Below the pieces are notes generated by a model, which saw only the letters and a program-made list of their open reading frames with translations, had not been told where the DNA came from and did no database searches. This document shows, piece by piece, positions 2,653 to 12,649 of a stretch of DNA of 64,000 nucleotides. How positions within the stretch are numbered: the first letter of the stretch is position 1; each line of letters begins with the position of its first letter. Source of the DNA: an uncultured Bacteroidota bacterium (lineage in GTDB: Bacteria > Bacteroidota > Rhodothermia > Balneolales > HLUCCA01); NCBI GenBank assembly GCA_947085565.1, contig CAMTWZ010000002.1:3921-67920 (forward strand), given 5' to 3'. A program made the translations under genes and the position numbers.

Positions 2653-3678
2653 ATGAACATCCTCCTCACCGGTGGGGCCGGCTTCATCGGCTTCAATTTC
2701 GTCTCGTATTGGCTGGCCAACGACCCGTCGGTCCGTTTCGCGAACATCGACAAGCTTACCTACGCCGGAAATCCCGCTTCCTTGCAGCTTCTGGCCGCTT
2801 ATGGCGACCGCCACACCCATCACAAGGTGGATATATGCGACGGTGCGGCCGTGCGCGCGGTGTTCGAGAGCTTCAAGCCGGATGTGGTGATCCACTTCGC
2901 CGCGGAGAGTCATGTGGATCGGTCGATCGACGGACCCGGTGAATTCATTCAAACCAACATCAACGGCACATTCACGCTCTTGCAGGAAAGCCTGCGTCAT
3001 TTCGAGAGCTTGGATGAGGCTGGTAAAGCGAAATTCCGGTTTCATCATGTGTCCACCGACGAAGTCTTCGGCTCGCTGGGCGACACCGGCTATTTTTCGG
3101 AAACCACGGCATACGATCCGCGGAGCCCGTACTCGTCGTCGAAAGCCGCATCAGATCACCTCGTCCGCGCCTGGTATCACACCTATGGCTTGCCGGTGGT
3201 GCTTACGAACTGCTCGAACAACTACGGTGCGTTCCACTTTCCTGAGAAACTGATCCCTCTCATGATTCTGAAACTCCACAACGGAAAACCCTTACCGGTC
3301 TACGGCGACGGTTTGAACGTCCGCGATTGGCTCTATGTCGAAGACCATGTGCGCGCGCTGATGACCGTGCTCCGCGGCGGACGCTCCGGCGAGACCTACT
3401 GCGTGGGCGGCGGCGCCGAGATGAAGAACATCGACGTCGTGAAGACGCTGATTCAAGTGATGGATGAGGCTTATCCGCATCCCGAGATCAAAGACCGCAC
3501 CTCCCTCATCACATACGTCGAAGACCGGAAAGGCCACGACCGCCGCTACGCCATCGACGCGTCGAAACTGCACACCGAGCTCGGCTGGTCGCCGCAAGAA
3601 AGCTTCGAAAGCGGGATCCGCAAGACGGTGAAGTGGTATATGGAAAATGAAGCGTGGTGGAGGCCGTTGCTTCGCTAG
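2653..3678 (+). CDS. rfbB: dTDP-glucose 4,6-dehydratase
   Basis: TGGAGFIG, AAESHVDRSI, HVSTDEVFG, YSSSKA, GHDRRYAID. Confidence 0.97.
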   Translation: MNILLTGGAGFIGFNFVSYWLANDPSVRFANIDKLTYAGNPASLQLLAAYGDRHTHHKVDICDGAAVRAVFESFKPDVVIHFAAESHVDRSIDGPGEFIQTNINGTFTLLQESLRHFESLDEAGKAKFRFHHVSTDEVFGSLGDTGYFSETTAYDPRSPYSSSKAASDHLVRAWYHTYGLPVVLTNCSNNYGAFHFPEKLIPLMILKLHNGKPLPVYGDGLNVRDWLYVEDHVRALMTVLRGGRSGETYCVGGGAEMKNIDVVKTLIQVMDEAYPHPEIKDRTSLITYVEDRKGHDRRYAIDASKLHTELGWSPQESFESGIRKTVKWYMENEAWWRPLLR

Positions 3679-3903: not shown

Positions 3904-4770
3904 ATGAAAGGAATTATTTTGGCCGGCGGTTCCGGCACCCGTCTGCATCCGCTCACGCTGGTCATGAGCAAGCAACTGTTGCCGGTCTATGATAAGCCGA
4001 TGATCTACTATCCGCTGAGCACGCTCATGATGGCCGGCATTCGCGACATCCTCATCATTTCCACGCCGCACGATCTGCCGCATTTCGAGCGCATTTTGGG
4101 GGATGGGAGCCGCATCGGATGTTCCTTCACGTACGCCGTTCAGCCCGAGCCGAAGGGCTTGGCGCAGGCGTTTACCATCGGCGCGGAGTTCATCGGCCGT
4201 GAAAAAGTGGCGCTGGTGCTCGGCGATAACATCTTTTACGGCGCCGGACTCGGTTCCCAACTCCGCAACTGCGCCGATCCGGATGGTGGCATCGTGTTCG
4301 CGTACCGGGTGAGCGATCCCGAGCGCTACGGCGTGGTGGAGTTCGACGCGGAGGGGCAAGTCCTTTCCATCGAAGAGAAGCCGGCCAAGCCGAAATCCAA
4401 TTATGCGGTTCCGGGTTTGTATTTCTATGACAACTCGGTCGTCGAAATCGCCCGCAACATCCAGCCGTCGCATCGCGGCGAGTTGGAAATCACCGATGTG
4501 AACCGGATGTACTTGGAAGCTGGCAAACTGAGCACGCGCATCCTTCCGCGCGGCACGGCCTGGCTGGATACCGGCACGTTCAACTCGCTGATGCAAGCGG
4601 GTCAGTTCATCCAAGTCATCGAAGACCGCCAAGGCTTCAAGATCGGCTGCATCGAAGAGATCGCGTGGAGGAACCATTGGATTGGTGATGCGGAGCTCGT
4701 GGCGCTGGGCGATCAGCTTGGGAAGAGCGGGTATGGGGCTTATCTGAAACGCTTGACGCTGGACGCTTGA
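3904..4770 (+). CDS. rfbA: Glucose-1-phosphate thymidylyltransferase
   Basis: [37 protein letters not shown]. Confidence 0.97.
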
Positions 4771-4818
4771 CGCCTGACGCTTGACGCTTGACGCCTGACG
4801 CTTGACGCCTGACGCTTA
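4749..4818. repeat. 10 x ACGCTTG/ACGCCTG array overlapping the stop codons of rfbA and the four-helix-bundle gene
   Basis: Read directly. Confidence 0.95.
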
Positions 4819-5169
4819 GGAGCGGACGCTTTTCATGTAATTGAGCAATGTCGCCCTGGTGTGGTTGACGTCGTTGTTCAGTGAGATAAATAGGGTTTCA
4901 TCGACATATCCCAGATCGTGAGCGATGATGAGATGGCATTCCACCTCATTGGCTGAGCCGAGGGCAATTTCTAAAAAGCGATAGAAATCTGCTTGAGATC
5001 GCCGAGATGCGCCTTCGGCGATGTTTGCCGCAATAGACACAACGGCTCTGCAAAGTTGATCGGTCAGTCGAAACCTCTCTTTCGAGGGAAAGGTGTCGGT
5101 TAGGGTATAGATGGCGACAGTCAATCTGCGTGATTTCTGCCACACTTCCATTTTCTTGAATTCTCTCAT
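4816..5169 (-). CDS. Four-helix-bundle protein (23S rRNA IVP/S23 family)
   Basis: FKKMEVWQKS, FPSKERFRLTDQLCRAVVSIAANIAEG, FLEIALGSANE. Confidence 0.93.
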   Translation of the reverse strand: MREFKKMEVWQKSRRLTVAIYTLTDTFPSKERFRLTDQLCRAVVSIAANIAEGASRRSQADFYRFLEIALGSANEVECHLIIAHDLGYVDETLFISLNNDVNHTRATLLNYMKSVRS

Positions 5170-5249
5170 GTTGCTTCTCCAAAGGTTATATTTGGATAGA
5201 GCTGATTTTCAGTGAATTCTTACAAACATTGCACAGATTTAGGACAAAA

Positions 5250-5277
5250 AGCGTCTAGCGTCTGGCGTCAAGCGTAA
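5250..5277. repeat. (AGCGTCN)x4 array, inverted partner of 4749-4818
   Basis: agcgtct agcgtct ggcgtca agcgtaa. Confidence 0.9.
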
Positions 5278-5281
5278 ACCC

Positions 5282-5806
5282 ATGCTCCTCCCCGGCCTCA
5301 TCCTCATCGAACCTCGCGTCTTCACCGATGCACGCGGCTATTTTTTCGAATCCTGGTCGAAGGCCAAGTACGATGAGCTCATCGGACCGGTCGATTTCAT
5401 CCAAGACAACGAATCGCAATCGGTGCGCGGCACCTTGCGCGGGCTGCATTATCAGCGCGAGCCCTTCGCCCAGTCGAAACTGGTGCGAGTGATCGCTGGA
5501 AGCGTGTTCGACGTGGCGGTGGACATCCGTCCCGGAAGCGCCACATTCGGCCAATGGTACGGCGTCGAGCTCTCGGCCGAAAACAAGCGCCAATTGTTCA
5601 TTCCGAAAGGGTTCGCCCACGGCTTTCTCGTGCTCAGCGACACCGCGATTTTCTCTTACAAGGTGGATGCGCCCTGGAACAAAGACTCGGAAGCGGCGAT
5701 CCGCTGGGACGACCCGAGCATCGGGATCGACTGGCCGATGAAGGAAGCCGAGTTGATTCTGAGTGAGAAAGATCGGAACGCGGGGCGTTTGACGCCTAAC
5801 GCTTGA
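5282..5806 (+). CDS. rfbC: dTDP-4-dehydrorhamnose 3,5-epimerase
   Basis: DARGYFFE, QDNES, RGLHYQ, GFAHGF. Confidence 0.96.
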   Translation: MLLPGLILIEPRVFTDARGYFFESWSKAKYDELIGPVDFIQDNESQSVRGTLRGLHYQREPFAQSKLVRVIAGSVFDVAVDIRPGSATFGQWYGVELSAENKRQLFIPKGFAHGFLVLSDTAIFSYKVDAPWNKDSEAAIRWDDPSIGIDWPMKEAELILSEKDRNAGRLTPNA

Positions 5807-5823
5807 CGCAAGAAGAGAAACGC

Positions 5824-6642
5824 ATGACGCAAGAACATCCTTCAGACAATGTCCTGCATAGAGCGTCTAGCGTTCAGCGTCCGGCGTTAAGCGTCCGGCG
5901 TCAAGCGTCCAGCGTTCCGCGCCTCACCGTCATCCTTCCCGCTTATAACGCCGCCAAGACCTTGCGTGCCACCGTCGCCGCCATTCCGATGGATGTGGTG
6001 CATGATGTGGTGTTGGTCGATGACCACAGTGGCGACGACACCTTCGCTCTCGCCCAGGAACTTGGCATCCACTGCGTTCGGCACGACGCGAACAAAGGAT
6101 ACGGCGCCAACCAGAAATCCTGCTACGACATCGCTCTCTCTCGAGGCGCCGATATCGTGATCATGCTCCATCCCGATTACCAGTACGAGCCGCGCCTGGT
6201 GCCCGCCATGGCCGCGATGATCACCTCGGGTGTGTACGATGTCTGTCTCGGATCACGCATTCTGGCGCAAGACGCGGTGGCCGGAGGGATGCCCGTCTAT
6301 AAGTACATCTCGAACCGCATCCTCACGCTCATCGAGAACCTGCTTCTCGGACAAAAACTGTCCGAGTACCACACCGGCTACCGCGCTTACAGCAGGAAGG
6401 CGCTCGAATCGGTCGATTATCATAAGAACAGCGACGATTTCATCTTCGACAACGAAATTCTCGCTCAGATGCAGCACAAGGGGATGCGGTTCGGGGAGAT
6501 CAGTTGTCCCACGAAGTACTTCGACGAGGCGTCGTCGATTAATTTCCGCCGCTCGGTGACCTATGGCTTCGGTGTTCTGCATACCGCGCTCCGATACCGG
6601 CTACACCGATGGAATCTGATGCGCTATGAGATCCTGGACTGA
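5824..6642 (+). CDS. Glycosyltransferase family 2 (DPM1-like)
   Basis: VILPAYN, VDDHSGD, NKGYGANQK, HPDYQY; N-terminus contains a translated heptamer array. Confidence 0.9.
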   Translation: MTQEHPSDNVLHRASSVQRPALSVRRQASSVPRLTVILPAYNAAKTLRATVAAIPMDVVHDVVLVDDHSGDDTFALAQELGIHCVRHDANKGYGANQKSCYDIALSRGADIVIMLHPDYQYEPRLVPAMAAMITSGVYDVCLGSRILAQDAVAGGMPVYKYISNRILTLIENLLLGQKLSEYHTGYRAYSRKALESVDYHKNSDDFIFDNEILAQMQHKGMRFGEISCPTKYFDEASSINFRRSVTYGFGVLHTALRYRLHRWNLMRYEILD

Positions 6643-8780: not shown

Positions 8781-8992
8781 AAAAGTAGGAAGTAGGAAGG
8801 TTGAAGTGGGAAGATAGGAATCAGGAATCAGGAATCGGAAATCAGGAATCAGGAAATCGGAAATCGGTAAATACCAGCGTACCAGCGTACCAGCGTACCA
8901 GCGTACCAGCGTACCAGCGTACCATCCTACCAGCGTACCAGCGTACCAGCGTACCAGCGTACCATCCTACCATCCTACCATCCTACCATCCT
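8781..8992. repeat. Stacked arrays: AAGTAGG, GGAATCA/G, ACCAGCGT and ACCATCCT
   Basis: Read directly. Confidence 0.95.
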
Positions 8993-9616: not shown

Positions 9617-9857
9617 GGTAGGATGGTAGGATGGTAGGATGGTAGGATGGTAAAGATAGGAATCAGGAATCAGGAATCGGGATGGTCGAGGAAATGTTGA
9701 ATTTTAAATGTTGAATTTTAAATGAAGAGGTGCCACCTCGACATTCCGTAAAATCGCCATCTTACCGATTACCGATTACCGATTACCGATTACCGATTAC
9801 CGATTACCGATTACCGATTACCGATTACCGATTACCGATTACCGATTACCGATTACC
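9617..9857. repeat. Stacked arrays: (GGTAGGAT)n, GGAATCA, a 14-mer AATGTTGAATTTTA repeat and 13 x TTACCGA (9762-9852)
   Basis: Read directly. Confidence 0.95.
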
Positions 9858-12315: not shown

Positions 12316-12624
12316 AATTTTAAATGAACAATTTTAAATGAAGAGGTGCTTCGCATTAACACTCTGACCTCGCACCCTTCGCTTCGCTCAGGATGACAAC
12401 GCATCAACGTAAAAATAGAAGAGACGGCATAGCGCTTTTTAGGCGCACTTATGATCTCGCCATGCCGCCTCTTCATTATTTTCTAACTACGTACCCTCAT
12501 CCTGAGCGAAGCGAAGGACCTCTTCATTTAAAATTGTTCATTTAAAATTCAACATTCAGCACTGTCATCCTGAGCGAAGCGAAGGACCTCTTCATTTAAA
12601 ATTCAACATTTAAAATTCAACATT
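12316..12624. repeat. Nested inverted-repeat element (AATTTTAAATG and TCATCCTGAGCGAAGCGAAGG families)
   Basis: Multiple arms; same architecture as 8086-8271. Confidence 0.85.
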
Positions 12625-12649
12625 CTTCAATTTGGGATACCTTTAGCGC

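Follow-up and report, generated by a model that had tools for sequence, protein, structure and literature searches.

A four-helix-bundle gene between inverted heptamer arrays in an rfb operon, and its likeness to the intervening sequences of 23S rRNA

Why should a small four-helix-bundle gene lie between rfbA and rfbC, antisense to both, with tandem heptamer arrays of opposite orientation at its two ends? The question is raised by a 64,000-nt stretch of DNA (the window, G000:C2:3921-67920) from an uncultured Bacteroidota bacterium of the order Balneolales, whose genome, G000, amounts to 2.75 Mb in 25 contigs and is 99% complete. The original prediction, made from the letters of the window, had offered two readings of the gene with its arrays: an intervening sequence that acts at the level of the mRNA, looped out of the rfb transcript or excised from it by RNase III, or a repeat-delimited mobile unit. 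We find that the PF05635 gene with repeat arms is a general design of which this locus is one copy, that arm type and protein clade are inherited together, and that the site varies among related genomes. Positions 4749-5275 very probably represent an inserted cassette of this repeat-armed four-helix-bundle class, which is built like the S23p-type intervening sequence of 23S rRNA but lives in a protein-coding operon. For the arms, RNA processing is the leading but unproven function.

The four-helix-bundle gene (4816-5169, minus strand) encodes 117 aa and matches PF05635 with 130.2 bits (cut-off 33.8; E 4.3e-38) and TIGR02436 with 127.5 bits (cut-off 24). Both of its neighbors are on the plus strand: rfbA, for glucose-1-phosphate thymidylyltransferase (3904-4770; PF00483, E 6.7e-75), and rfbC, for dTDP-4-dehydrorhamnose 3,5-epimerase (5282-5806; PF00908, E 7.5e-71), and the cassette occupies the entire spacer between them. 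The G+C content is 48.0% in the gene and 33.8% in its 80-nt leader, compared to 58.7% in rfbA and 58.9% in rfbC. The left array (4749-4817) forms the 3' arm when the cassette is read in the direction of the four-helix-bundle gene and consists of 9.9 units of ACGCYTG (TRF consensus ACGCTTG, 87% matches, score 110). Reading of the sequence places the rfbA stop codon (TGA, 4768-4770) inside this array, together with the stop codon of the four-helix-bundle gene (TAA, 4816-4818, minus strand), and the final six codons of rfbA (RLTLDA) are array-coded along with the stop. The right array (5250-5275), the 5' arm, consists of 3.7 units of AGCGTCN (TRF AGCGTCT, 84%), the reverse complement of the left unit, and ends 6 nt short of the rfbC ATG. 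The original prediction was accurate in each of these elements, namely the AT-richer gene, its antisense placement, the arrays and the shared stops. It missed two additional arrays of this unit, one around the stop of rfbC and the other around the start of the next gene, which encodes a GT2 glycosyltransferase. The third array (5789-5810; about three units of ACGCYTN in the plus sense, as read from the sequence) codes for the C-terminal tail and the stop of rfbC, and the fourth (5862-5916; 7.7 units of AGCGTCC in the reverse sense, from TRF and the sequence) is in frame within an N-terminal extension of about 30 aa in the GT2 gene. With these two, the order of the four arrays along the locus is +, -, +, -. 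The unit is a fixed 5-nt core plus two variable positions, here GACGC+NN, and the units found in other phyla are composed likewise.

Arms were evaluated by local alignment of the 250 nt upstream of a gene to the reverse-complemented 200 nt downstream, with shifted windows as decoys. This approach was used in place of RNAduplex, which, on flanks of 150-200 nt, ran the pairing over everything and left the arms indistinguishable from shuffles. At this locus, the alignment of the left with the right arm covers 27 nt, 25 of which match, and its score of 22 compares with a maximum of 11.5 among 74 decoys. The genome contains ten PF05635 genes, and nine of these have arms that score above all 74 decoys, the exception being C14:117146. 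Extraction of the flanks of every four-helix-bundle gene in the genome, which had been put forward as a check of the original prediction, thus revealed inverted arrays at other copies too. Each copy has a 7-8-nt unit of its own (GGTAATT, ACGCTTG, GTAGGATG, GGGATGC, AGTAGGA, GTGAAAGC, GGACGTG, GTTGTTT and AATTTTA). As judged from the Pfam matches of the neighbors (one neighbor at each of two sites had no match), seven of the ten cassettes are located between co-directional genes, with the PF05635 gene antisense in five, including the one described here, and sense in two, and the remaining three between convergent genes.

Heptamer arrays are by no means confined to these cassettes. The whole genome contains 396 arrays with a period of 7, of 127 distinct units, and 780 merged arrays with periods of 6-9 form 75 inverted pairs within 3 kb, 40 of which have a gap of less than 150 nt and are gene-less hairpins. 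Conceivably, then, the arrays could be generic intergenic hairpins, such as slippage products, insulators or terminator-like elements, with the gene merely occupying a permissive loop to which it has no functional link. The 40 gene-less pairs come from the unit families of the cassette arms, and the two share a polarity: whichever strand is read, the G-rich arm comes first (5') in 36 of the 38 short-loop pairs of this genome, in 28 of the 31 Balneolales cassettes and in 37 of the 55 cross-phylum cassettes in which G and C differ in number. Moreover, Rehm et al. (2015; PMC4692102) describe GGGAATC heptamers in Xanthomonas that are intergenic and often form close 'convergent' pairs on opposite strands, with the G-rich strand inward; a search of that text for the terms S23, four-helix and intervening gave no match, and no gene between the pairs is mentioned in the portion covered. 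Our genome has GGGAATC among its arrays, with the same polarity in short-loop pairs, and at the locus analyzed here tandem 7-nt units likewise converge from opposite strands, but the unit is not G-rich, unlike those of Xanthomonas, which are discussed there in connection with G-quadruplexes. A further reason to doubt that the gene is a bystander comes from the pairs with a larger gap: ten inverted pairs are separated by 400-600 nt, and seven of these enclose a PF05635 gene, a family that covers about 0.16% of the genome. The association also persists in phyla whose genomes were not picked for their arrays, and the rfbA-rfbC spacer of a congener, G002, lacks an ACGCYTG array. Generic hairpins are therefore a very improbable account of the arms. 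The polarity itself possibly reflects avoidance of C-rich, Rho-attracting nascent RNA; the unit of this locus, in which G equals C, is uninformative on this point.

Two other array-rich regions were observed in the same genome. Within the window, very long, near-perfect arrays are found at 757-913 (ACCAACT, 22.4 copies), 8872-8988 (TACCAGCG, 14.6 copies) and 9762-9857 (TTACCGA, 13.7 copies, 100% matches). The first has an inverted TGGTAAT array as its partner at 709-741. On another contig, 3 kb of sequence (G000:C1:49400-52520) contain several open reading frames (ORFs) surrounded by AGTAGGA/CTTCCTA arrays, at least eight in all, whose orientation alternates. One of these ORFs, small and not of the PF05635 family, is bracketed in cassette-like fashion with a spacing of 449 nt.

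The repeat-armed architecture extends far beyond this genome. PF05635 is present in 48 of the 61 Balneolales genomes searched, and among the other Balneolales genomes, each represented by its top locus, 23 of 29 score above every decoy. A pattern scan with one genome per species produced a cross-phylum set of 80 loci from Acidobacteriota, Bacteroidota, Planctomycetota, Chloroflexota, Pseudomonadota, Saccharimonadota, Verrucomicrobiota, Actinomycetota and others. Flanks were sufficient for the test at 75 loci; 62 of these exceed the highest of 143 decoys (13), mostly with a period of 7, and 13 do not, including Elizabethkingia, a Dehalococcoidia metagenome-assembled genome (MAG), an archaeal MAG and some Prevotella loci. 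The period of the unit is 7-8 in nearly all phyla sampled. Homologues are also found on 32 plasmid records, mostly cyanobacterial, and on one phage record; in the copy NPUN_RS33770 on plasmid pNPUN01 of Nostoc punctiforme PCC 73102, CAGGAGT arms lie directly at the start and stop codons, and in that on a plasmid of Nostoc PCC 7120 the flanks are not complementary. When arm class was mapped onto a quick tree of 90 proteins, 29 changes were required, compared to a mean of 47 for shuffled labels, with none of the 200 shuffles as low, and 14 of the 16 'CAGC' arms fell in a single clade, alongside a betaproteobacterial and a Balneolales member. Because the tree has poor resolution and labels are shared among relatives, this result speaks for co-inheritance of arm and gene and for nothing beyond it.

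Among known systems, the closest in build is the S23p-type intervening sequence of 23S rRNA. In Coxiella burnetii, this element is described as a 28-bp stem of terminal repeats in which RNase III cuts at the first repeat, and the 5' part of the stem comprises three to four tandem GACAGAT heptamers in a number that varies among strains (PMC4990558). The unit described here resembles it in that a gene of the same family occupies the loop of a stem of about 25-28 bp formed by terminal inverted repeats, with tandem heptamers in the stem and an overall size of about 430-530 nt. Unlike the S23p-type element, which resides in helix 25/45 of 23S rRNA, this copy is placed antisense between two protein-coding genes, its arms extend further, as degenerate arrays of 4 and 10 units, and its leader has a promoter-like motif. 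Furthermore, excision by RNase III is established for the rRNA element, whereas the cassette is known from its sequence and predicted pairing. Genes of this family have also been noted between adjacent genes of other operons: Zhang and Ye (2013; PMC3936711) report PF05635 genes wedged in cas operons, for example between cmr3 and cmr2, and interpret them as functionally associated with CRISPR-Cas. The passages on these genes mention no flanking repeats (PMC3936711), and the placement fits an operon-invading cassette. Full-text searches of the literature, which did not cover subscription journals, the 1993 Leptospira paper or supplementary files, returned no account of a gene-plus-inverted-heptamer unit outside rRNA. 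Thus, the gene-plus-repeat unit seems to be undescribed outside ribosomal RNA genes.

To our knowledge, structures have been solved for the PF05635 'intervening sequence' protein family and its function is not known. Among solved homologues, the protein of this locus is closest in sequence to PDB 2gsc (E 8.9e-22), which was deposited with five chains. It conforms to the family consensus R-x3-S-x3-N-x2-E given in PMC3936711 with R41, S45, N49 and E52, of which N49 and E52 are invariant across the ten paralogues of this genome. The paralogues are 20-67% identical to this copy, and its nearest homologues in genomes of its family are 65-67% identical.

These features allow for another role of the arms, as binding sites of the cassette's own protein. 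Like TRAP, a pentameric ring would contact successive heptamers, either on RNA or on single-stranded DNA, with each paralogue reading the 'address' of its own arm for autoregulation or array maintenance. The fixed core with two variable positions, the narrow range of periods across phyla, the different units of the paralogues and the tracking of protein clades by arm class are all compatible with such binding, as are the five chains of 2gsc and the homopentameric toroid that the Coxiella paper describes for a protein of this type (PMC4990558). Array density points the same way. We counted period-7/8 arrays of at least four copies in four arbitrary windows of our own choice (68-80 kb in total) from each of 16 related Balneolales genomes (L164-L223). 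Those lacking PF05635 (five genomes, 388 kb) yielded one such array, those with 1-4 copies of the gene (three genomes, 240 kb) none, and those with 9-13 copies (eight genomes, 640 kb) 32; for all period-7/8 arrays, the Spearman correlation with the number of PF05635 genes is 0.61. Given that the genomes are related and the windows were author-chosen, so that the sample is not independent, this association is a lead rather than a test. The link between arm class and clade is accounted for by co-inheritance alone, and the 396 arrays of this genome far exceed its ten PF05635 genes. Altogether, we regard recognition of the arms by the cassette's own protein as improbable.

Comparison with relatives reveals how the cassette came to occupy its site. 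In G002, which belongs to the same genus and has an RfbA 95% identical to that of our genome, rfbA is followed by a 210-nt spacer and rfbC, with no four-helix-bundle gene; the spacer contains a terminator-like hairpin within a different inverted element. In another congener, G001 (RfbA 92% identical), a run of repeats of about 100 nt follows, and then rfbC on the opposite strand. In G005, which is from the same family, the stop codon of rfbA overlaps the start of GT2, with neither rfbC nor a cassette between them, and G003 has no close rfbA. The junction between rfbA and rfbC thus shows both the presence/absence variation that the original prediction had proposed to look for in relatives and rearrangement. 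That prediction had named three outcomes that would speak against it; two of them, a lack of inverted arrays at other copies and an invariant site in relatives, are contrary to these results. The C-terminus of RfbA reads ...YLKRLTLDA* here and ...YLKGLV* in the congeners. Because the site differs in relatives and the nearest homologue of the protein is only 65-67% identical, we conclude that the cassette was gained, or swapped in, only in this lineage, where it replaced the spacer and the last three rfbA codons and rewrote the end of rfbA. A different site offers a glimpse of the process: at dsbD, the cassette of G002 has GGTACGCT arms next to leftover units of CCATCCTA, the arm type of G000 at that site, which suggests replacement inside old arms.

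Another repeat family was encountered at 12497-12625 of the window and in the rfbA-rfbC spacers of the loci L012 and L013. It consists of TGTCATCCTGAG...GGACC and its complement, as inverted copies and tandem repeats of about 100 nt, and in G001 inverted copies flank the inverted rfbC.

Several kinds of mobile or diversifying element were considered and set aside. The unit is not a transposon or a miniature inverted-repeat transposable element, in that it has no transposase, a single ORF of a non-enzymatic fold, and copies that are 20-67% identical with differing arms; the direct repeat that might pass for a target-site duplication, AAA outside the arms, is at 3 nt too short to be taken as one. 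A diversity-generating retroelement was considered in view of the accessory protein Avd, which belongs to a related four-helix-bundle fold family; PMC10053308 equates PF05635 with Avd-like proteins. In contrast to such systems, the genome has no match to the reverse transcriptase family PF00078, and the Avd equivalog model scores 21.5 bits, below its cut-off of 80, which excludes this assignment. The absence of PF00078 also removes the only obvious partner for array addition by a reverse transcriptase or telomerase-like enzyme. No defense-system model of PADLOC matched.

Just inside the 5' arm lies the AT-rich leader (5170-5249, minus strand), which has upstream blocks conserved across cassettes. 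In most copies of the genus, CGTTCCTAAATCTGTGC is followed by TGTAAGAA and, after about 19 nt, by CTCTATA; the corresponding motif of this locus is CCTAAATCTGTGC, then TGTAAGAA, about 19 nt, and CTCTAT... The motif AATCTGTGC adjoins six of the ten cassettes and occurs 57 times genome-wide, and the leader blocks also precede a few unrelated genes. A scan with the sigma-70 consensus found no site in the leader; by our own reading of the conserved blocks, they represent a putative promoter. One half of a separate repeat, present in about 17 copies (AAAAAATCTGTGGAATCTGTGC, about 85 nt, CTTGCGGACAG; for example, at G000:C10:38498, C10:41331, C16:57663 and C21:1038), is a motif that is common to the leaders of four-helix-bundle cassettes.

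What, then, might the arms do? In the sense of its gene, the cassette consists of a 5' arm of four heptamers, the 80-nt AT-rich leader, the 117-aa PF05635 gene and a 3' arm of ten heptamers. According to the explanation that we prefer, the gene would be transcribed leftwards off its own promoter. In RNA that reads through the cassette from the rfb operon, the arms would fold into a helix of about 25 bp that, as in the rRNA version, could be cut by RNase III. The cut would split the rfbB-rfbA message from the rfbC-GT2 message and, at the same time, remove RNA antisense to the passenger gene. When positions 4735-5290 are folded as rfb-sense RNA, the left and right arms are paired in both the minimum free energy and the centroid structures (z = -3.1), and an RNase III gene (rnc) is encoded in the genome. 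We found no intrinsic-terminator-like sites in 4600-6000, so that read-through of the rfb transcript across the cassette is possible. Comparison of the same interval with Rfam detected no rRNA and, at E-values up to 1, only two sub-threshold matches to microRNA families that we attribute to chance.

A number of observations weigh against such processing. In the longer fold of 4735-5930, the ten left units are all predicted to pair with the fourth array, so that rfbC would be looped out too, and the right array with the third. In 31 cassettes, the mismatches between arms comprise 158 transversions, 50 transitions that would be G:U on the sense strand and 40 that would be G:U on the antisense strand (binomial p = 0.34). 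This mix corresponds to the random ratio of 2:1 and gives no sign, for one strand or the other, that an RNA helix has been selected for; frequent homogenization of the arms could hide such selection. Further, should the promoter lie between the arms, mRNA started from it would bear only the 3' arm, and both arms would be found only on transcripts that come from outside. Cleavage by RNase III would sever rfbA from the rfbC cistron rather than splice the two. Among the sequencing runs listed as containing the stretch, none is of RNA. Finally, the genome-wide occurrence of heptamer arrays and short-loop inverted pairs means that such arms are not unique to the PF05635 gene.

The randomness of the mismatches, with no excess of wobble pairs, could equally be expected if the arms acted only on DNA, as the terminal inverted repeats of a unit that can be inserted or replaced. 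Under this alternative, they would be substrates for recombination, or hairpin or cruciform substrates, for host or trans-acting enzymes, and would have no role in RNA. The gain and loss of the cassette at this and other sites, with the apparent exchange of arm types at dsbD, the correspondence of arm type to protein clade across phyla and the copies on 32 plasmid records are all in line with an action on DNA. However, there is no transposase or recombinase within the unit, and copies of such low identity with differing arms imply no recent transposition burst. The contigs of four DNA runs contained no empty form and none of the flipped forms or strand-switch joints expected of an invertible DNA switch, which is a weak test, since contigs break inside the left array. 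Besides, the version in rRNA is described as being processed as RNA (PMC4990558). An exclusive role in DNA therefore appears possible but rather unlikely. Of the two readings offered by the original prediction, the repeat-delimited unit stands, and the intervening sequence at the mRNA level is plausible. We propose, tentatively and with less than even confidence, that the arms serve RNase III-type processing of the host transcript; to the explanation as a whole, an inserted cassette with RNase III processing of read-through RNA, we assign roughly even chances.

The remainder of the locus belongs to the polysaccharide cluster. rfbB lies upstream of rfbA (2653-3678, plus strand), and the GT2 gene follows rfbC on the same strand and extends to 6642. 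The latter has no further start codon past the fourth array, and the extension presumes ATG 5824 as its start; the GT2 orthologue of G005 begins with MSARVLVILPAYN and has no extension. The fourth array is a degenerate 7-nt repeat in frame in this extension (window 5824-5926), and one unit more or fewer would throw the gene out of frame, making it a candidate phase-variable switch.

A much broader picture can be drawn, to which we attach little probability. The PF05635 cassettes would form one phylum-spanning class of self-addressed elements, in which a pentameric ring reads its own arm, one heptamer (a 5-nt core with 2 free bases) per subunit. The elements would seed or maintain the heptamer arrays of bacterial genomes, the intervening sequence of 23S rRNA would be a copy that landed in rRNA, and in operons such as rfb the arms would let the host RNase III cut the element from read-through RNA.

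The gene-plus-repeat unit would unite three puzzles: the purpose of the 'intervening sequence' proteins, the ORF-bearing stem-loops of some 23S rRNA genes, and the tandem heptamers, often in inverted pairs, that litter many bacterial genomes. At this locus, the unit sits in a polysaccharide operon and rewrites the ends of three neighboring proteins. It also puts a 7-nt repeat into the 5' part of a glycosyltransferase reading frame, so that it may affect the expression of surface sugars.

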